Origin: an uncultured Clostridia bacterium
GTDB lineage: Bacteria > Bacillota > Clostridia > Christensenellales > CAG-314
DNA: 64,000 nucleotides
Direction of reading: 5' to 3'
Assembly (NCBI GenBank): GCA_947586855.1
Contig: CANPXV010000003.1
Span: 24,274 to 88,273, forward strand
A program made the translations under genes and the position numbers. The notes under the pieces were generated by a model that was given only the letters and a program-made list of their open reading frames with translations, was not told the origin of the DNA and ran no database searches. Below, one piece after another: positions 43,445 through 51,391 of the stretch (position 1 is its first letter; each line of letters begins with the position of its first letter).

Positions 43445-44128
43445 CTATTCCTTGCGCAAATGCACTTTCAGCTCAAGTATGGGCAGGCCGAGGCTGCGAA
43501 ATTTTGCCTCGTACTCCGTCACGATATTGTCGTCGGCGTCGGGCAGGTCGTAGCACACGTCCGTCACTTCAAAGCCGTTTTGCGCATAGCTTTCCAACGA
43601 CCATTCAAAAAAATCCCTGTTGTCCGTTTTCTGGCGTATCTCGCCGTCGTCCGTCAGCAGCGTCTTGTATTTTTCCAAAAAGTTTTTGCTTGTCAACCTG
43701 CGATTGGCGTAGGTTTTTTTGGGGAAGGGGCAGCTGAAATTGAGCGCAATACGGCTTATCGAGTGAGGGGGCAGGTATCTGTCCAGATTTTCCGCCCGCA
43801 CGTTGAGGAAGCGCAGATTGGGAAGGTGCAGCGGCAGTGCGTTTTCGCAAGCAACCACAATCACATTGGACAGTTTTTCCACCGCAACAAAGTTCAGCTC
43901 GGGGTGGCGTTGTGCGCTTTGGATAGCCCAGGCGCCCTTGCCGCAGCCGATTTCCAGCACAACGGGTTGCACCTCGTCAAATGCGTGGGCGATATCTATG
44001 CGATAGGCCAGCTTTTGCTGTTCGGTCAGGGTGTAGTAGCCGTCGCCTTCTCGTGCAAGCAGCAGCTCTCCGCACTGCGCAATGCGTTCTTCCAGATGTT
44101 TTTTGAGGCGCATGCGCATATCAGTCAA
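43445..44128 (-). CDS. trmB: tRNA (guanine46-N7)-methyltransferase
   Basis: VVLEIGCGKGAW (SAM motif I), NFVAVE, LNFSCPFPKK, TDN..FFEW - a typical TrmB layout. Confidence 0.85.
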   Translation of the reverse strand: MTDMRMRLKKHLEERIAQCGELLLAREGDGYYTLTEQQKLAYRIDIAHAFDEVQPVVLEIGCGKGAWAIQSAQRHPELNFVAVEKLSNVIVVACENALPLHLPNLRFLNVRAENLDRYLPPHSISRIALNFSCPFPKKTYANRRLTSKNFLEKYKTLLTDDGEIRQKTDNRDFFEWSLESYAQNGFEVTDVCYDLPDADDNIVTEYEAKFRSLGLPILELKVHLRKE

Positions 44129-46217
44129 GGCCCTCCAACTCTTGCAGCCACACGTCGGGGCAGGCGTCGGTGGGGATGCGCAGGCTCATCTTGGACAGGT
44201 CCACCGAGCCCAGCCGAACGCTGTCGGGGGTGCAGCTGCGCTTAAACTGCTGCGAAAAGAACCTTTTCACAAAAAATCTCAGCCATTTCAGGATGGTGGC
44301 GTCGTCGTATATACCCGCAAAGGAGCGTTTTGCCAGCTCAAACACCTTGCGCGCGCCAAAGCCCTTGCGCACGATCAAAAACAAAAAGTAGTCGTGCAGT
44401 TGATAGGGCCCCACGCTGTTTTCGGTGATCTGCGCAATGTTACCCTCGCTGTCGGTGGGCAGCAATTCGGGGCTGACGGGCGTTTCGATGATGTCGTGCA
44501 GCACCTTTTTCAGCGTCCCCTTGCTGTGATGTTCGCAGTGGGCCAGCAGCGTTTTTACCAACGTTTTGGGCACCGAGGCAATGGCGGCATACATGCTCAT
44601 CTGGTCGCCGTTGAAGGTGCTCCAACCCAGCGCCGCCTCGCTCATATCGCCCGTGCCCACAACCAGGCCATTTTCGGCATTGGCGATGTCCATCAGCACC
44701 TGCGTGCGCTCTCGGGCCTGGGCGTTTTCGTAGACGGTGTCGGGGGCAAAGTTGTGCCCGATGTCCTTCAAATGCTGCGTCACGGCGGCGGATATGTCGA
44801 TCTGGCGCACTTCGCAGCCCAATTCGCTCATCAGCGACAGGCTGTTGCCAAGGGTGCGCTTGCTTGTGCCAAAGCAGGGCATTGTCACCGCCACAATATC
44901 CTTGGCGCTGCGGTTGGATAGCTCCAACGCCCGTTTTGCCACCAGCAGTGCAAGGGTGCTGTCGCTGCCGCCCGATACGCCCAGCACCAGCTTTTTGGCG
45001 CCGATGTGGTCGATGCGCTTTTTCAGGCCAAAGCTGAGTATCGTCAATGCCCTTTCGCACACCTCGTCGGCGTTTTCGACGGGCACAAACGGGTTGGGAT
45101 CGTAGGTGCGGGCCACGCCTTTCAGCGGCAGGCAAAAGCTCACAACGTCGTAGCCATCGGGCGTGCGACCCTTGTCCAGACGGGCACGCTCGTTCCGGAT
45201 AAAGTCAAAGTCCGCCACGGCCTCGACATATCCGCTGCCAAAGGGTTGCGCCTCGGCCAGGCACTGTCCGTTTTCGCACACCATATTGTGCGCCGAAAAC
45301 ACCGTCGCCGAGGTGGATTCGCTTGGCCCCGACGAGCAATATGCGTAGATAACGCCGCACTTTGCCGACTGTATCTCTATCATTTTTTTGCGGTAGGCCG
45401 CCTTTACGATGGTCTCGTTGCTGCTGGACAGGTTAAGCACCGCATTGGCCCCCGCCGCCGCATGTCCCACCGATGGCGAATCGGCCACCCACACATCCTC
45501 GCACACCTCCACGGCAAAGCGCATTTCGCTGTGGAGGGCGTTGTCAAACAGCAGCCTCACGCCAAATGGCACCTGCTTGCCCAGCAGATAAACGGTGGTG
45601 TTGGGGCCGTCGTAGGGGCAAAAAAACCGCTTTTCCATAAACTCGTTGTAGTTGGGCAGATTTTTTTTGGGGATAACGCCCAGCACCTGCCCATGCAGCA
45701 GCACCGCAGCCACGTTGTACAGCCGCCCGTCGTTGCCGCACAGAGGCAGCCCCACAACAGTGATCACGTCCAGATCGGCCAAGGCCGCAGCGATGTCGCA
45801 GAGAGAAGTTACCGCCGCATTGCGCAAGCTGTCAGAGAAAAACAAATCGCCGCAGGTGTAGCCCGTCACGGATAGCTCCGGCAGCACGGCAATCTGCACG
45901 TTGTTTTGGGCGGCTTGGCGCACAGCCTCGACGATCTTTTTGGCGTTGAAGTCGCAATCGCCCACACGCACCTCGGGGCTGATGCAGGCAATGGCCACCA
46001 TGCCCAGGTAGGGTGCGTCGGTGCCCAGCAGCCACTGTTCCGATACGTCCAACGCCGCCGCCAGACGGCTCAGCTTGTCCGGACGGACGCTTTTCAGCTC
46101 TCCGCTCATGATTTTGTTGACGGTGCCCTGCGACAATCCGCTGCTCTCCGCCAGCTGTTTGAGGGTGCAGCCCTTTTGCCTTTTTGCTTCGTTAAGTTTT
46201 GCCACGATGTTTTGCAT
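44121..46217 (-). CDS. nadE: glutamine-dependent NAD+ synthetase with N-terminal XRE-type HTH domain
   Basis: Residues 1-65: HTH (CTLKQLAESSGLSQGTVNKIMSG). Then a CN-hydrolase domain (VLPELSVTGYTCGDLF). Then an NAD-synthase PP-loop (VLGVSGGSDSTLALLV). Confidence 0.85.
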   Translation of the reverse strand: MQNIVAKLNEAKRQKGCTLKQLAESSGLSQGTVNKIMSGELKSVRPDKLSRLAAALDVSEQWLLGTDAPYLGMVAIACISPEVRVGDCDFNAKKIVEAVRQAAQNNVQIAVLPELSVTGYTCGDLFFSDSLRNAAVTSLCDIAAALADLDVITVVGLPLCGNDGRLYNVAAVLLHGQVLGVIPKKNLPNYNEFMEKRFFCPYDGPNTTVYLLGKQVPFGVRLLFDNALHSEMRFAVEVCEDVWVADSPSVGHAAAGANAVLNLSSSNETIVKAAYRKKMIEIQSAKCGVIYAYCSSGPSESTSATVFSAHNMVCENGQCLAEAQPFGSGYVEAVADFDFIRNERARLDKGRTPDGYDVVSFCLPLKGVARTYDPNPFVPVENADEVCERALTILSFGLKKRIDHIGAKKLVLGVSGGSDSTLALLVAKRALELSNRSAKDIVAVTMPCFGTSKRTLGNSLSLMSELGCEVRQIDISAAVTQHLKDIGHNFAPDTVYENAQARERTQVLMDIANAENGLVVGTGDMSEAALGWSTFNGDQMSMYAAIASVPKTLVKTLLAHCEHHSKGTLKKVLHDIIETPVSPELLPTDSEGNIAQITENSVGPYQLHDYFLFLIVRKGFGARKVFELAKRSFAGIYDDATILKWLRFFVKRFFSQQFKRSCTPDSVRLGSVDLSKMSLRIPTDACPDVWLQELEGLD

Positions 46218-46543
46218 ATTTTCTCCATTTTTTTGCGATTTTTTTTGTTTTTTGCCCTTGATAACGCTCTTCCGCCCAAATTTCAGGCACCTTTGCGCCC
46301 GAATTTTTAACGATTGTGCGCTCTATAAGGGCGATTTTTTACTTGATTTTTAGCAAGTTTGCTGCCTTGCGCCCTGCACAAACGTGATTTTTTTGTTTCC
46401 GCTTTTGCAGGACAGCAAATTTTATTCTCAATATATTTTACTCTCAATCGATTATAAAATCAACAAAATCGCAACGCAAAATTTATAAAAAATTCAGTGT
46501 CCCGCTTGTTCATTTGCAAGATTTTATAAAATCCGCCCCTCAC

Positions 46544-46563
46544 CGCCGCACGCCCTTGTCCAA
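46544..46563 (+). repeat. left copy of 20-nt direct repeat flanking the Dpn-type island
   Basis: cgccgcacgcccttgtccaa. The partner at 49414-49433 is cgccgcacgcccttggtcaa (19/20 identical, same orientation). Confidence 0.5.
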
Positions 46564-46602
46564 TACAAAATCGCAACAATTTTTGCCCACCCTTTTCCGA
46601 TA

Positions 46603-46636
46603 CGAAAAAAAACACGAGATTTGTCCTCGTGCTTTT
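46603..46636 (-). terminator. intrinsic terminator of the island operon
   Basis: On the - strand: CACGAG-gacaaat-CTCGTG followed by TTTTTTTT. Confidence 0.7.
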
Positions 46637-46656
46637 CATTTCACATTTTCCATTAT

Positions 46657-47256
46657 TTATTTTCTAAACACAAACAGGTACTCATGCGCAAGCAGAAGAA
46701 AATTAAACTTGATGCTGTTTGTTTTCCAATAGCCTGTTGCCTTGCAGTTGTGCTGTTCTTTTATGATAATCTCTTTTGTCTTGAACCCAGCAAGTTCGAA
46801 TACTCGCATGGTTTCAAATGCGAGAGGCTTGACCATACCTTTTTGCCTCGTATCGCCCATAAGGATAGCACAAAACTTATCCTTTTTCAATACCCGATAA
46901 CATTCCTCGGCAACTTTGCCCATTTCAAACAGGAACTCTTTCATTGGCAGGCGGGACAAGTCCCCGTCAATGTCCTCGCTGTAATGGATAATATCGGCAT
47001 ACGGTGGGTGAGTGCACACAAGGTCTATGCTTTCGTCCCCAAGCGGCAGCTTGCGTGCGTCCCCAACGGCAAGTGATGTGGTCGCCTGCGTGTCAAAATC
47101 AAACTCGCATTTTCTTTTCGACAGTTCAATTGCGTGTGGATTTATGTCAATGCCGACAAAATTCCTGTGCGTCAGCTTGGCCTCGACAGCAGTAGTGCCG
47201 CCTCCGACAAATTGATCCAACACGGTATCGCCCTCTTGGGTATAGCGCAAAATCAC
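46657..47256 (-). CDS. site-specific DNA methyltransferase (N6-A or N4-C); start codon problematic, possibly a pseudogene
   Basis: Motif I VLDQFVGGGTT, then motif IV THPPY, then HEYLFVFRK*. Conserved-looking sequence (THDAKYRGNWSPYIPRN) continues upstream of the first GTG up to an in-frame TAA. Confidence 0.6.
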   Translation of the reverse strand: MILRYTQEGDTVLDQFVGGGTTAVEAKLTHRNFVGIDINPHAIELSKRKCEFDFDTQATTSLAVGDARKLPLGDESIDLVCTHPPYADIIHYSEDIDGDLSRLPMKEFLFEMGKVAEECYRVLKKDKFCAILMGDTRQKGMVKPLAFETMRVFELAGFKTKEIIIKEQHNCKATGYWKTNSIKFNFLLLAHEYLFVFRK

Positions 47257-47319
47257 GTTGCGGGGGATATACGGCGACCAATTGCCACGATACTTTGCGT
47301 CGTGGGTTGCACGGCGAGA

Positions 47320-47514
47320 TTAAAATTCCATCCATTCGGTTGGTTCGTCTCCGACAGATGCCATTTGCCGAAACTGTACCTCGCCGGGTTCTAAAACAAA
47401 TTTACCTTTGCGATATTTTTCCTCGGCAATTTCAAGTGCTTGGACGCTATCATCTGCCATTACCTCAAATTCTTGTACAACTGTTTCTTCGATAGCAATA
47501 ATAAACTTTTTCAT
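47320..47514 (-). CDS. DpnD/PcfM-like small protein (64 aa)
   Basis: MKKFIIAIEETVVQEFEVMADDSVQALEIAEEKYRKGKFVLEPGEV fits the recalled DpnD/PcfM pattern. Sits directly downstream of the DpnI-like gene, as in the pneumococcal DpnI cassette. Confidence 0.55.
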   Translation of the reverse strand: MKKFIIAIEETVVQEFEVMADDSVQALEIAEEKYRKGKFVLEPGEVQFRQMASVGDEPTEWMEF

Positions 47515-47522
47515 TTCTCACC

Positions 47523-48293
47523 TCAATAGAGTTTTTTGTATTCTCCTCTCTGGGTAAATTGCAAAAATCCTTTGTCTCGCAAGTATTGCAATTGCTGTCG
47601 GATTTTAGGCTTCACGTTGTGATTGTTTGGATGTTTTGCCGACAATATCGCCTCGAAACGATAAATGTCATCAAGAGTAAATTCCTGCATTTGTATCTGG
47701 TTGACGCATTGAAGCACATCAAACAACCAACCGCGAGCCTCGATATTTGAAAGTTCCAAATTGGAGCTTCTGGACATTTGCGACAACACTATTCCTTTAT
47801 CTATGGCGCAGCCGTTCTCAACTATTTTGATAAAGCCCTGTTGCGGGACAGTGTGCAGCAATATGTTGCAACCCACCCAGCCTGCTCTGCGTGCACTTGC
47901 CGAAAGGGGCTTGCGTTTTTCAATCATAGACGGGACAAAAAAGTGTTTGGGAACAATAACAAGGTCTTTTACAACCATGGATTGCTTTTGGTAACTCATA
48001 AACAGAAAATCAGGGTTGCGGTTGCTTGTTATTCGTGCAATCATTGTTTCGTAAGCACCGTCATTTATTTTCTCGCCCAATTTTCCGCCTTTACTTTTCA
48101 GTTCAAATTCGTTTTTACAATGCTCGCAGTAGAAGTCGGCCACAGGACGGTTGTTTTGAAAATGCAATATTTTTTCATTGCCGCAACGTGGGCAATACAG
48201 ATTTTCTCCCACCCAAGTCTCTGTCAATAGACGTGCTCGTTGTGTTTCGCTGTGATAAACGTCAATTCCATCAAAGTGCATTTGTAAATCCAT
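47523..48293 (-). CDS. dpnC: DpnI-like type IIM methyl-directed restriction endonuclease (cuts G6mATC)
   Basis: Collinear with the recalled S. pneumoniae DpnI sequence: YCPRCGN...FQNNRPVADFYCEHCKNEFELKSK, INDGAYETM, RKPLSASARRAGWVGCNI, C-terminal winged helix IRQQLQYLRDKGF. Confidence 0.85.
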   Translation of the reverse strand: MDLQMHFDGIDVYHSETQRARLLTETWVGENLYCPRCGNEKILHFQNNRPVADFYCEHCKNEFELKSKGGKLGEKINDGAYETMIARITSNRNPDFLFMSYQKQSMVVKDLVIVPKHFFVPSMIEKRKPLSASARRAGWVGCNILLHTVPQQGFIKIVENGCAIDKGIVLSQMSRSSNLELSNIEARGWLFDVLQCVNQIQMQEFTLDDIYRFEAILSAKHPNNHNVKPKIRQQLQYLRDKGFLQFTQRGEYKKLY

Positions 48294-49236
48294 AAGTTTT
48301 CAACTCCTTGTTGCATTTTGTCAAAACAATCTTTGCCCCTGTTGCATCGATGTCGTCTATAAACTTGGAAAGCCTGATTTGCTCGCTGTCATCGAAGGCA
48401 TCGGCATTGTAGGACGTGAAAGCCGAAGTTTCGGAAATGGGGCGATAAGGCGGATCGAGATATACAAAAGTATTCTTGTCGATGAACTCTTTCGATAAGG
48501 AATAGTCGCCGCAAACGATAGTAACGTTTTGCAAAACTTTGCTGATATTAAGCAAGTTTTCCTCGTCGCAAATCGTCGGATTTTTGTATGCGCCCATTGG
48601 GACGTTGAATTGTCCTTTGCGGTTTACCCGATACAGTCCGTTGAAGCAAGTCTTGTTGAGGAAGATAAAATAAGCCGCTTTTTCGACCGCTGTTTCGTCT
48701 GTCAATACCACGGAATTGAATTTATCACGGATGGAATAGTAGTAAAACTTTCTGCCGTTTTCGTCCATTGGCAAAAATACCATTTGCATTTCTTTGAGGC
48801 GCACAATCAGCCTCTCAACATCCTTTTTGATAACGTTGTACGCATTGATAAGCTCGGCATTTATGTCCCCAATATACAGTTCGGCAAAATCATACTTCGA
48901 CAGTACGTTGAAGAGTAGTGCGCCGCCGCCCACCATAGGTTCACAATACTTTGTAAGAACCCTTTCGCCGCCCGAGGGCAGCATCTTTTCAAGCTCGTCG
49001 ATGAGTTGTCCCTTGCCGCCCACCCATTTGACAAACGGTTTCAACGTGATTTGATGTTCCTTTTCGTAACGAACGGTTCTCTTGTCTATGGGCTTTTCGG
49101 CGTCGCTTGGGATAATCCACATATTTCCGACCATCATAGCGCCGTCAATCCTGTTTTCGGCACAGAGAATTGCCACACGCCGTTGCGAAATGTTCCACTT
49201 TTCGGCGGCTTCTTTTGCCGACATATAACTCAACAT
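48271..49236 (-). CDS. Dam-type (D12-class) N6-adenine DNA methyltransferase with N-terminal HTH; apparently C-terminally truncated
   Basis: HTH_17-like N-terminus. FVKWVGGKGQL, EPMVGGGALLF, CFNGLYRVNRKGQFNVP, VYLDPPY. Ends 17 aa after the GAKIVL strand, whereas Dam/DpnM have about 45-50 more aa. The 3' end overlaps the dpnI start. Confidence 0.7.
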   Translation of the reverse strand: MLSYMSAKEAAEKWNISQRRVAILCAENRIDGAMMVGNMWIIPSDAEKPIDKRTVRYEKEHQITLKPFVKWVGGKGQLIDELEKMLPSGGERVLTKYCEPMVGGGALLFNVLSKYDFAELYIGDINAELINAYNVIKKDVERLIVRLKEMQMVFLPMDENGRKFYYYSIRDKFNSVVLTDETAVEKAAYFIFLNKTCFNGLYRVNRKGQFNVPMGAYKNPTICDEENLLNISKVLQNVTIVCGDYSLSKEFIDKNTFVYLDPPYRPISETSAFTSYNADAFDDSEQIRLSKFIDDIDATGAKIVLTKCNKELKTYGFTNAL

Positions 49237-49261
49237 AAAGCACCTCACTTTTGATGTCTAT

Positions 49262-49290
49262 ATTATATTCCAACTCTCGAACAAAAGCAA
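49262..49290 (-). promoter_or_regulatory. promoter of the island operon
   Basis: On the - strand: TTGCTT (49290-49285), 17-nt spacer, TATAAT (49267-49262). Confidence 0.5.
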
Positions 49291-49413
49291 GCATTTTCTT
49301 GTTGAAGTCCGATCTTATTTCCCAAAGCAAGTGCTATCCGCAGAGGCGTTGGGTTTGTCTCCCCGCAGGGGAGTAAGGGGAGCAACACAATGTGTTGCGT
49401 AGCGCTACTTCGT

Positions 49414-49433
49414 CGCCGCACGCCCTTGGTCAA
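49414..49433 (+). repeat. right copy of 20-nt direct repeat flanking the island
   Basis: cgccgcacgcccttggtcaa. See 46544-46563. Confidence 0.5.
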
Positions 49434-49592
49434 CACCAACCTCGCAAGCTCGGTTGGTTCCGTTGACGGTCGGCGGCTCCTCTCCCACAAAAGTTTCGCA
49501 AGCTCGACTTTTGCGGGTGCCCGTGGGGCGTCTCGTTATAGAAACACGCCCAAGAAGTGGGGCGAGCGACAGGGCGGCAAACAAAAGCGAGC

Positions 49593-49626
49593 AATAGAAA
49601 AGGGGTGCACCTGGTGTGTACCCCTT
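49593..49626 (-). terminator. intrinsic terminator after tRNA-Asn
   Basis: On the - strand: GGGGTACAC-acc-aGGTGCACCCC-type hairpin followed by TTTTCT. Confidence 0.6.
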
Positions 49627-49658
49627 TCTGTTGCGACCACAAGTGCAGCCGCCCACAA

Positions 49659-49733
49659 TGGCTCCCCGTGTTGGGTTTGAACCAACGACCCTCCGGTTAA
49701 CAGCCGGATGCTCTGCCGCTGAGCTAACGAGGA
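49659..49733 (-). tRNA. tRNA-Asn (anticodon GTT), CCA encoded
   Basis: Manual fold: acceptor TCCTCGT/ACGGGGA, D-arm AGCTCAGCGGCAGAGC, anticodon stem TCCGG/CCGGA with loop CTGTTAA, T-arm GGTTCAAACCC, discriminator G plus CCA. Confidence 0.9.
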
Positions 49734-49750
49734 ATATCAATTGCGTTTAT

Positions 49751-49779
49751 ATCCTACCACCTGCGGCGCAAAATGTCAA
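49751..49779 (-). promoter_or_regulatory. possible tRNA-Asn promoter
   Basis: On the - strand: TTGACA (49779-49774), 17-nt spacer, TAGGAT (49756-49751), 17 nt before the tRNA 5' end. Confidence 0.4.
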
Positions 49780-50029
49780 ATGTTTTTATGAAAAAATTTT
49801 TCCGCAGCCCTTTTTGCGGTTCGCCCGATGTTTTTGCGCTGTCCGATCGCCTTCCATCGCCACCGGATAGCAGCGGTGTTATAGCTTACCATGCGATGGA
49901 AAAGTAAGCGCAAGAGGTTTGCAATTTCTATGATAACGACCTGCGCACATGTCAGTACCGCAAATGACATAAAAATATGCATAATACCTTTTGGATAATA
50001 AAAGCGGTGCAGTAGCTATCCTAAAACCA

Positions 50030-50512
50030 TTTCCTCTCCCATTCTCTCTTCTTTTTTTTCTTTTTCTTCTTTTCTTTTTATTATTTTTTTTTATTCTTTT
50101 TCTCTCGTTCGTTTCACCCCGTACCTCTTCTTTTTTTCTCCCCCTTTCCTTCTCCCTCTCTTTTCTTTCTTTTCCTTTTTCTTTTTTTTATTCATTTCTT
50201 TGATTTTTTCTCTTGTTCGTTTCTCCCCGTCCCCTCTCTCTTTCTCTCCTCTCCACTTTTTTTTCTTCCTCTCCCTTTCTCTCTTCTTTCTTTCTTTTCC
50301 TTCTTCTTTTTTTTATTCCTTTCTTTGATTTTTTCTCTCGTTCGTTTCACCCCGTACCTCTTCTTTTTTTCTCCCCCTTTCCTTCTCCCTCTCTTTTCTT
50401 TCTTTTCCTTTTTTTATTATTTTTTTTATTTATTTCATTCTTTGATTTTTTCTCTTGTTCGTTTCTCCCCTGTCCCCTCTCTTCCTCTCCCCTTCTCCCC
50501 TTCTTCTCGGCA
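50030..50512 (+). repeat. polypyrimidine tract array with about 115-125-bp internal periodicity
   Basis: The box TTTGATTTTTTCTCTYGTTCGTTTCWCCCCGTMCC recurs at about 50100, 50200, 50325 and 50443, alternating in two variants. The header AGCGGTGCAGTAGCT at about 50003 precedes the tract. Confidence 0.85.
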
Positions 50513-50638
50513 TACTGCGCATTTTTGCGCATAAAATATACAAAAATACAAAATTTTCGACAAAAGTTGCCATGTTCGCAGCGCAAAAATTGCATTATAA
50601 TATAGTTGCGCATGGGCAAAACGTCAAGGGGGATAGAC

Positions 50639-51391
50639 ATGGTCAAGCAAACGGTGGTGGCCGTTGCGGTGACGTTGGTATGCGTGATGCTGGTATGCGG
50701 CATGGGCGGATATGCCCAGGTGTACGCCAACGGACGTTCGGTGCCCATTTACAGCGTGGATCGGCAGGACAATCTGGTGTCCATCAGTTTCGACGCCGCC
50801 TGGGGAGCGGACAAAACTCGGCAAATAATGGATGTTTGCGACAGTTACGGCGTCAAAGCCACCTTCTTTCTGGTGGGATTTTGGGTGGACAAATACCCGC
50901 AAATGGTGGCGGAAATCGCCTCGCGCGGTTTCGAGATAGGCACGCACAGCGCCACGCACCCGCAGATGAGCAAGCTGACCGAGCAGCAATGCCGAGAGGA
51001 ACTGCTGACAAGCAGCAAAAAGATATTCGAAATCACCGGCGCCCCCGTGCAGTTGTTTCGGCCGCCCTTTGGCGACTACAACAACACATTGCTAAGCGTG
51101 GCCAAAGGTCTGGGGCTGTACACCGTGCAGTGGAGCGTGGACAGCCTGGATTGGAAGGGCCTATCCGCCGTGGAGATAGCGCAGCGAGTGCAGCAGGCGC
51201 AAAGCGGCGACATCATATTGTGTCACAACAACAGCGACCACATAGTGGAGGCGTTGCCCCTAATTTTTGAGGCGATGCGTTTCAAAAATCTGCAATTTGT
51301 ACCCATAGGGCAGCTCATCTATCGCAACGGATACACAATCGACAGCAGCGGCCGACAGCGGCAGGACAAATCCGCCAACACCCTGTTGTAA
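50639..51391 (+). CDS. polysaccharide deacetylase (NodB homology domain), secreted/membrane-anchored
   Basis: N-terminal TM/signal, then VSISFDAAWG, KATFFLVG.W, IGTHSATHP, LFRPPFGDYN - the NodB motifs. Confidence 0.8.
   Translation: MVKQTVVAVAVTLVCVMLVCGMGGYAQVYANGRSVPIYSVDRQDNLVSISFDAAWGADKTRQIMDVCDSYGVKATFFLVGFWVDKYPQMVAEIASRGFEIGTHSATHPQMSKLTEQQCREELLTSSKKIFEITGAPVQLFRPPFGDYNNTLLSVAKGLGLYTVQWSVDSLDWKGLSAVEIAQRVQQAQSGDIILCHNNSDHIVEALPLIFEAMRFKNLQFVPIGQLIYRNGYTIDSSGRQRQDKSANTLL

Follow-up and report, generated by a model that had tools for sequence, protein, structure and literature searches.

The closest described relatives of the locus discussed here come from the pneumococcus and from Neisseria. 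In the pneumococcus, the DpnI (dpnC-dpnD), DpnII (dpnM-dpnA-dpnB), and DpnIII cassettes occupy one syntenic locus (PMC4471560), and they are swapped among strains by homologous recombination in the account of Lacks et al. (1986) as cited there (PMC4471560). At the Neisseria leuS/dam locus, a low-GC gene of the NmeBII/DpnI family, drg, replaces dam or sits within it (PMC4269198; PMC516771), and several meningococcal strains have drg inserted in dam with a truncated dam left behind (PMC4269198). The drg locus has been likened to minimal mobile elements; it has no mobility genes, and exchange between conserved flanks has been proposed for it (PMC4269198; PMC516771). The subject of this report is a GATC restriction cassette on contig CANPXV010000003.1 of an uncultured Clostridia bacterium, where we analyzed a stretch of 64,000 nucleotides (the window). 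The window belongs to genome G000, an assembly of 1.47 Mb that is 93% complete, and 40 relatives were screened for homology to it. Below, G-numbers are related genomes, L-numbers are extracted loci or contigs, type I refers to a DpnI cassette, and type II refers to a DpnII cassette. We consider it likely, and hold with reasonable confidence, that positions 46649-49320 of the window are a horizontally acquired, mobile GATC cassette in the methyl-dependent ("type I") state, that its center was swapped by way of methylase-gene arms, and that the direct repeat found around it is not an attachment (att) site.

The cassette is made up of the following parts (HTH, helix-turn-helix; aa, amino acids; RBS, ribosome-binding site):

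46603-46636, - strand: intrinsic terminator of the cassette operon, hairpin CACGAG...CTCGTG with a T run on either strand
46657-47319, - strand: remnant of a second methylase (N6_N4, PF01555; Pfam E 9e-25), 220 open codons after the DpnD stop
47320-47514, - strand: DpnD/PcfM-like gene, 64 aa (PF14207, E 2.7e-7)
47523-48293, - strand: DpnI-family methyl-GATC-dependent (type IIM) endonuclease, 256 aa (PF06044, PF17726)
48271-49236, - strand: HTH-Dam methylase, 321 aa, C-terminally truncated (Pfam D12, TIGR00571)
49249-49320, - strand: cassette promoter and RBS at the right cassette end, CTTGCT...17 nt...TATAAT, RBS GAGGTG

A first-pass annotation, made from the letters alone, had described a four-gene restriction/methylation operon with a terminator at 46636-46603. 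The four frames and their families are as it stated and a scan found a hairpin at the terminator position, but the operon would not work as such a system, with both methylases cut at their junctions with DpnI-DpnD. The DpnI gene itself is apparently intact. Its product matches both family profiles over their full length (PF06044 positions 1-181 of 183, E 2.5e-74; PF17726 positions 1-70 of 70, E 5e-33), which means that the N-terminal PD-(D/E)XK catalytic domain and the C-terminal winged-helix domain are both present, and it aligns end to end with the crystallized pneumococcal R.DpnI (4ESJ, residues 4-257; E 1.5e-80). The catalytic and zinc-binding residues of R.DpnI are defined in PMC3424567; the window protein keeps E25, D53, E64, and K66 together with both CXXC pairs (four zinc-binding cysteines), and the aligned motifs read ..LTETW.., ..PVADFYCEHC.., ..FELK.., and CPRC.

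Both methylase genes are incomplete. The Dam frame, which starts at the ATG of MLSYM... and so gives 321 aa, consists of 305 codons homologous to the 355-aa intact form followed by a foreign 16-aa tail, and its end overlaps the DpnI start by 23 nt. Homology to the intact forms ends after ..GAKIVL, where the intact proteins go on SNSDPKNV...ELIISN. The window Dam is without the 50 C-terminal residues of those forms and therefore lacks a complete catalytic domain of a D12 GATC methylase. Its profile matches are partial (Pfam D12 positions 1-227 of 253, TIGR00571 positions 2-230 of 267), and it aligns to residues 7-243 of the 284 in DpnM (2DPM) with nothing matching residues 244-284, the part of DpnM that forms the last two core strands of the fold. 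As a caution for annotation, "Dam methylase" calls of 309-321 aa beside DpnI genes are most likely inactive proteins. The second methylase, 87.8% identical in nucleotide sequence to G008 over 46649-47310, is missing the first ~31 codons of its 246-248-aa intact homologues. It has no ATG, and its first GTG comes only after the HDAKYRGNW motif, so it is not a full-length open reading frame (ORF); the intact second methylases of G008, G005, and G015 start M..KKISLQPENFELETNTVWAFPNRGKW ahead of ATHDAKYRGNW. The TAA stop of DpnD is in frame with the remnant, and this junction is common to G022 and L046. A DpnD-methylase fusion through readthrough of the TAA was considered and rejected, because common descent of the junction accounts for the shared frame and the downstream part is deleted in most relatives.

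Judged by its domains and residues, the window would thus hold a DpnI that is active and cleaves G(m6A)TC, between two methylase remnants without catalytic activity, and DpnI beside two stumps would be the sole arrangement that the cell could survive. A second Dam in G000 that would clash with DpnI was also considered. The sole other D12 methylase found in G000, at its 93% completeness, is paired with an IceA/NlaIII-type nuclease, and it was discounted as a clash because it belongs to that system, which is predicted to be CATG-type and not GATC. This second restriction system (L036, G000:C3:19682-22187) lies about 2-4.5 kb left of the window start and comprises an IceA/NlaIII-family nuclease (PF05315, E 5e-71), a 272-aa N6_N4 methylase, and a 344-aa D12 methylase. 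Its 272-aa methylase is built like the second methylase of the cassette.

Relatives carry the operon in intact form, in the order Dam-class methylase, DpnII/MboI-family endonuclease, and second adenine methylase (M-R-M), as found in G008, G015, L049, and L051. G008 and G015 combine an HTH-Dam of 355 aa with DpnII (PF04556, E 5e-108), and their second methylases are 246-248 aa long. The methylase-gene arms of G008, G005, and G015 are 81-89% identical to those of the window, with a center between them that is unrelated to the window's, and in G005 the same arms enclose a different, 179-aa center. Aligned to these operons, the window appears to have DpnI and DpnD in place of DpnII, the last ~50 Dam codons, and the first ~31 second-methylase codons. 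The junctions themselves recur. Dam is cut after the same codon (..GAKIVL) in the window, in the congener G022, in metagenome contigs L042-L047, and in ten 321-aa proteins from databases that have the tail xxxNKELKTYGFTNxx; the G022 cassette is only 69-74% identical to the window's in DNA and yet shares this codon. Other truncated Dam forms have slightly different junctions. At the other arm, the second-methylase junctions of the window, G022, and L046 lie within about 12 nt of one another and in the same frame.

Evidence that the two kinds of center are exchanged comes from a pair of loci related to the window cassette. The type I locus L046 and the type II locus L049 are 98.3% identical over 5,965 bp, a stretch that has four flanking genes and runs through Dam as far as the junction codon; on the far side, the final 180 nt of the second methylase and a further 28 nt match at 100%. 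Shared flanks and shared arms make them two alleles of one locus, DpnI versus DpnII, and for this pair the same flanks enclose both cassette types at one chromosomal site. A quick IQ-TREE search on 120 Dam homologues, using their first ~300 residues, gave a tree with truncated and full-length forms interleaved, and its well-supported branches require at least six switches; the 355-aa protein P0139, for example, is nearly identical to P0131 and P0132 of 321 aa. The segments of the cassette are also mosaic with different histories, given that the window and L042 are 88% identical in DpnD, 74.5% in DpnI, and 71% in the Dam arm. The allele pair, the interleaved tree, and the mosaic segments together lead us to propose that the center is exchanged by homologous recombination through the methylase genes. 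Exchange seems to run through these genes and the adjoining flank, not through the 15-bp repeats described below, and on this evidence the two cassette versions look to be exchanged like alleles among gut-type Clostridia. The first-pass annotation had suggested an exchange resembling that of the Dpn cassettes, with replacement between conserved flanks. Its idea of alternative cassettes stands with L046 and L049, but the homology used seems to lie within the methylase genes and the adjoining flank.

The composition of the cassette points to its arrival from elsewhere. Its GC content is 0.439, as against 0.533 for the genome and 0.589 for the neighboring gene nadE, and its genes have GC contents at third codon positions (GC3) of 0.32-0.55 as against 0.77 for nadE. 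Both measures are unlike the host's and bear out the earlier impression of an island richer in AT than its flanks; by these statistics the cassette appears foreign in origin. Cassette copies in different genomes sit at unrelated sites with no common flanks, and the homology of the other copies with the window ends at 46649-46658 and 49291-49320.

The account that we favor would run as follows. The ancestral form would be an MboI/DpnII-like M-R-M operon with an HTH-fused Dam-family methylase, DpnII, and a second N6_N4 methylase, as is seen in the relatives. A DpnI-DpnD module would have taken the place not only of DpnII but also of the 3' end of the preceding methylase gene and the 5' end of the following one, leaving an active DpnI and two dead remnants. 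The residual ~0.9 kb and ~0.65 kb of methylase sequence, with the flanks, would then serve as homology arms for exchange of DpnII and DpnI centers, and the HTH of the truncated Dam, retained even where the methylase domain is deleted, would regulate the conserved promoter. The whole cassette would have come horizontally into the variable spacer between the nadE promoter and a tRNA-Asn gene without a recombinase, like the minimal mobile elements of Neisseria.

In other copies, the cassette center is a variable slot with extra or alternative genes between the two methylase genes. The extras include a 443-aa gene in L049 (8086-9417), a 205-aa gene in L018 (2680-3297), DUF4357 and a 355-aa gene in L051 (5385-6269 and 7154-8221), and a gene of 386-391 aa after DpnD in L056 (1246-2406), and L017 (4554-5093) has a 179-aa PD-(D/E)XK-like gene instead of DpnII. 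An element with a serine recombinase and Mob_Pre lies within the cassette terminator hairpin of L049 (11069-14431) and is absent from the allele L046.

Several observations weigh against this account, and they concern the exchange itself, the state of the methylase stumps, and the direct repeat. As to the exchange, a sliding identity window against G008 revealed no recombination breakpoint in the window's arms, where identity is an even 80-96% up to both junctions. A search for empty or alternative sites yielded the alleles L046 and L049 in relatives and a near-empty spacer in congeners, but none for the window's own species, whose NadE 90% cluster has one member; six contigs from other samples that encode the NadE or DpnI of the window match at 99.6-100% identity, and the island occupies all six. 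The deacetylase encoded right of the island gave no database record for tracing conspecific sites, and an exact-pattern scan of genome contigs with the left junction returned a single match, a chance one in Flavivirga. A stronger version of the exchange account holds that the methylase genes are built-in homology arms by which the population flips repeatedly between DpnII and DpnI, with each flip to DpnI killing both methylases and the HTH-Dam stump perhaps acting as a timer. A DpnI state that is short-lived or regularly re-made would explain why the remnants look fresh. We offer this version tentatively, as something short of an even chance.

As to the stumps, the operon may instead be functional as it is, with the 321-aa HTH-Dam as a selected protein that is non-catalytic or acts differently, for example as a controller that times DpnI expression through binding at the promoter or at GATC sites. 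Ratios of nonsynonymous to synonymous substitution (dN/dS), computed by the method of Nei and Gojobori (NG86), are 0.05-0.08 in the Dam arm between truncated copies at dS of about 1 or more, which indicates strong purifying selection. Wherever a type I cassette keeps Dam, the truncated frame has stayed open, whereas the second-methylase remnant decays and is deleted or interrupted differently in G022, G007, L042, L046, and L048. (The interruption in G022 is an insertion of ~137 bp at 3700-3837 of L008, G022:C88.) The terminal branches of truncated forms are at most about twice as long as those of full-length ones, and all that G007 retains of Dam is its 62-aa HTH, in front of DpnI. With DpnI starting inside the end of the Dam ORF and a conserved dyad in the promoter, the truncated Dam could retain function and not be a fresh remnant. 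The same ratios nevertheless have another explanation. Dam-arm dN/dS is 0.06 between the window and the intact G008, intact pairs fall in the range of truncated ones, and the window's second-methylase stump has a value of 0.049. Low values in the stumps may come from frequent exchange with working cassettes or else from a retained function of the Dam stump, and the near-identical truncated and full-length arms (the P0139 pair, L046 and L049) indicate that recent origin from working methylases suffices. The methylase domain of Dam is absent from the G007 and L048 cassettes, which manage without it, and the part matching DpnM residues 244-284 is gone. Translational coupling or polarity could also favor an open Dam frame, since the DpnI ribosome site and start lie inside the Dam end. 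We therefore regard a selected stump protein as doubtful.

Regulation by the HTH belongs to the favored account as well. The promoter that the first-pass annotation placed at 49290-49262 is borne out at about 49260-49290. Its CTTGCT-17-TATAAT arrangement and the dyad ATTCGAGAnTTnGAAT that sits between the hexamers (also written ATTCGAGAGTTGGAAT) are common to 11 aligned cassette copies of both types. Because promoter and dyad are conserved in both types and G007 keeps an HTH-only form, the N-terminal HTH of the truncated Dam probably controls the promoter of its own operon.

The third group of observations concerns the direct repeat, which lies among the features that surround the cassette:

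44121-46217: nadE (HTH-NadE), whose product has an N-terminal XRE-type HTH
46218-46541, - strand: nadE upstream/promoter region with TTATAAAAT-type boxes, conserved host DNA ending at the island start
46544-46569, + strand: left direct-repeat copy, 15 nt exact and 22/26 in all, resembling the 5' arm of element A hairpin 1
49333-49555, + strand: dispersed hairpin repeat "element A", whose first hairpin has the right repeat copy (49414-49439) for its 5' arm
49558-49655, + strand: dispersed repeat "element B", at least six copies in G000
49659-49733, - strand: tRNA-Asn(GTT) (ARAGORN; Rfam 64.9 bits), 3' end toward the island

The two copies, at 46544 and 49414 and 2870 bp apart, share the exact 15-mer CGCCGCACGCCCTTG. 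They had been described as 19/20 identical; the ungapped figure is 18/20 (22/26 when extended), and 19/20 requires an indel. In the 1.47-Mb genome, the exact CGCCGCACGCCCTTG occurs at these two sites alone, with one more copy at one mismatch in another copy of element A. The right copy lies within a dispersed element. G000 has no fewer than 11 copies of element A, and congeners have many, including one beside the nadE promoter in G020. Both element families, A and B, recur across the genus and are further found on G000 contigs C1, C5, C6, C8, C9, C11, C13, C22, C26, C28, C30, and C32. The two hairpins with a common loop that had been noticed to the right of the island are real and part of this dispersed repeat; they carry the identical loop CGCAAGCTCG, and their folds are supported (- strand z = -3.1). 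Rfam gave nothing in 46200-50700 but the tRNA, so the hairpin repeats do not belong to a known RNA family.

One could take the 15-26-bp repeats as the mark of insertion, in which circular or linear DNA with the cassette recombined at element A, whether by a short-homology crossover of the Campbell type or with duplication of the target, and left one repeat copy at each end. The copies are found some 95-105 bp beyond the two ends of the cassette, no match above 11 nt arose when 400-nt flanks were shuffled, and a rough empirical estimate puts such placement by chance at about 4e-4. The earlier remark that placement is what makes the repeats notable thus holds for placement alone, and a role in insertion is one that the repeats may have had. 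The left copy also matches the adjacent element-A copy in 15/15 positions as against 14/15 for the best other copy in the genome, which leaves some chance of a short-homology event, and the conservation of nadE upstream DNA breaks off at about 46541, which is 3 bp short of the left copy. On the other side, element A does not look simply split, its 5' part (49394-49413) being absent from the DNA that precedes the left copy. That copy stands alone as a 26-nt fragment, the rest of 46220-46660 being unique in G000, and its 85% identity to element A (22/26) is within the typical inter-copy identity of 72-91%. Direct matches of 15 nt are common, with 38 pairs of 15 nt or longer outside low complexity in the window and a mean of 1.7 in shuffles, and no recombinase is present. 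No repeat flanks the cassette in nine further copies at other sites; the idea that element A belongs to the mobile unit was likewise rejected, because it does not flank the other cassette copies. We judge insertion at the repeat to be unlikely. With the right copy inside element A, the divergence of the left copy typical, and nine insertions that lack the repeat, the most likely reading of the left copy is as what remains of another element-A copy or as a recombination joint, and the 15-bp repeat is probably not what moved the cassette, neither as att site nor as target duplication.

The spacer between nadE and tRNA-Asn is a variable one in the genus. The two genes are only 290-360 bp apart in G017 and G001, G002 has sbcDC between them, and G003 has other genes; these are different species with differing or no cargo, and their intergenic DNA is not alignable. 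Two further claims of the first-pass annotation were accurate: the tRNA lies 226 bp to the right (about 225 bp had been given), and the ORF list of the island contains no integrase or transposase. That the island is what remains of an integrase-mediated tRNA-Asn genomic island, with its integrase lost and the repeats as decayed att sites, is highly improbable: the tRNA 3' end faces the island, the spacer varies among congeners, and G017 has a second tRNA 3'-end 10-mer near its tRNA, but the repeat has no relation to the tRNA, a second tRNA 3' end is absent from the window, neither an integrase gene nor a fragment of one occurs within 46200-49660, and the same cassette occupies many sites not shown to adjoin a tRNA. 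The 10-mer in the "empty" site of G017 (L022, G017:C1 about 800-815) is TGGCTCCCCG, lies ~110 bp from the tRNA, and may be an old att scar.

The host DNA on either side has features of its own. Positions 46425-46541 align to nadE upstream DNA of G009, G020, G019, and G002 at 72-76%, and the similarity stops at about 46541. The TTATAAAAT-like boxes are repeated upstream of nadE and conserved across these four congeners, which together with the N-terminal HTH of the product suggests autoregulation of nadE. Right of the tRNA, 50030-50512 is a polypyrimidine (C/T) tract of ~480 bp with internal repeats of 108-125 bp. Across G000, the palindrome CTAG has 39 sites in 1.47 Mb (observed/expected 0.01), and CGCG (0.09), TTAA (0.23), CCGG (0.33), and GATC (0.55) are also depleted, which suggests strong past or present restriction pressure at those sites.

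A cell cannot hold both Dam methylation and DpnI, and switching between these modes of defense is therefore a hard genetic problem. The locus looks like a compact solution in which one replacement removes DpnII and disables both methylases, while leftover methylase sequence would allow ordinary homologous recombination to pass the switch on or to reverse it. The locus adds uncultured, small-genome Clostridia to the pneumococcal and neisserial examples and suggests that population-level alternation of GATC defense against phages is widespread. Our literature search found no paper on a DpnI-DpnD module in an M-R-M operon with both methylases clipped.

Comparison with the described systems shows what is shared and what differs. 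As with Neisseria drg, a lower-GC gene for a DpnI-family, G(m6A)TC-specific endonuclease stands in place of Dam methylation. The Neisseria target is a solitary dam, whereas the target here is a three-gene M-R-M operon that gives up DpnII and the ends of two methylase genes together, with DpnD among the incoming genes; the remnants of the methylases seem to supply the homology arms, and the whole cassette also moves between unrelated sites and species of Clostridia. The pneumococcal Dpn system shares with this locus the families DpnI, DpnD, DpnM-like Dam methylase, and DpnII. Pneumococcal cassettes are reportedly without mutual sequence similarity and recombine through flanking host genes. In the window's cassette family, by contrast, homology is not confined to host flanks, for the promoter, 305 Dam codons, and up to 215 second-methylase codons are common to both types. 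Gene order here is M-R-M, as in MboI and unlike the pneumococcal cassettes, but relative to MboI-type operons the window lacks a DpnII/MboI-family endonuclease and has both methylases truncated, its first methylase bears an N-terminal HTH, and extra genes are often found in the center of the cassette. The window thus apparently combines the Neisseria and pneumococcal precedents, with DpnI-DpnD placed inside an M-R-M operon and the clipped methylases serving as the arms for exchange.

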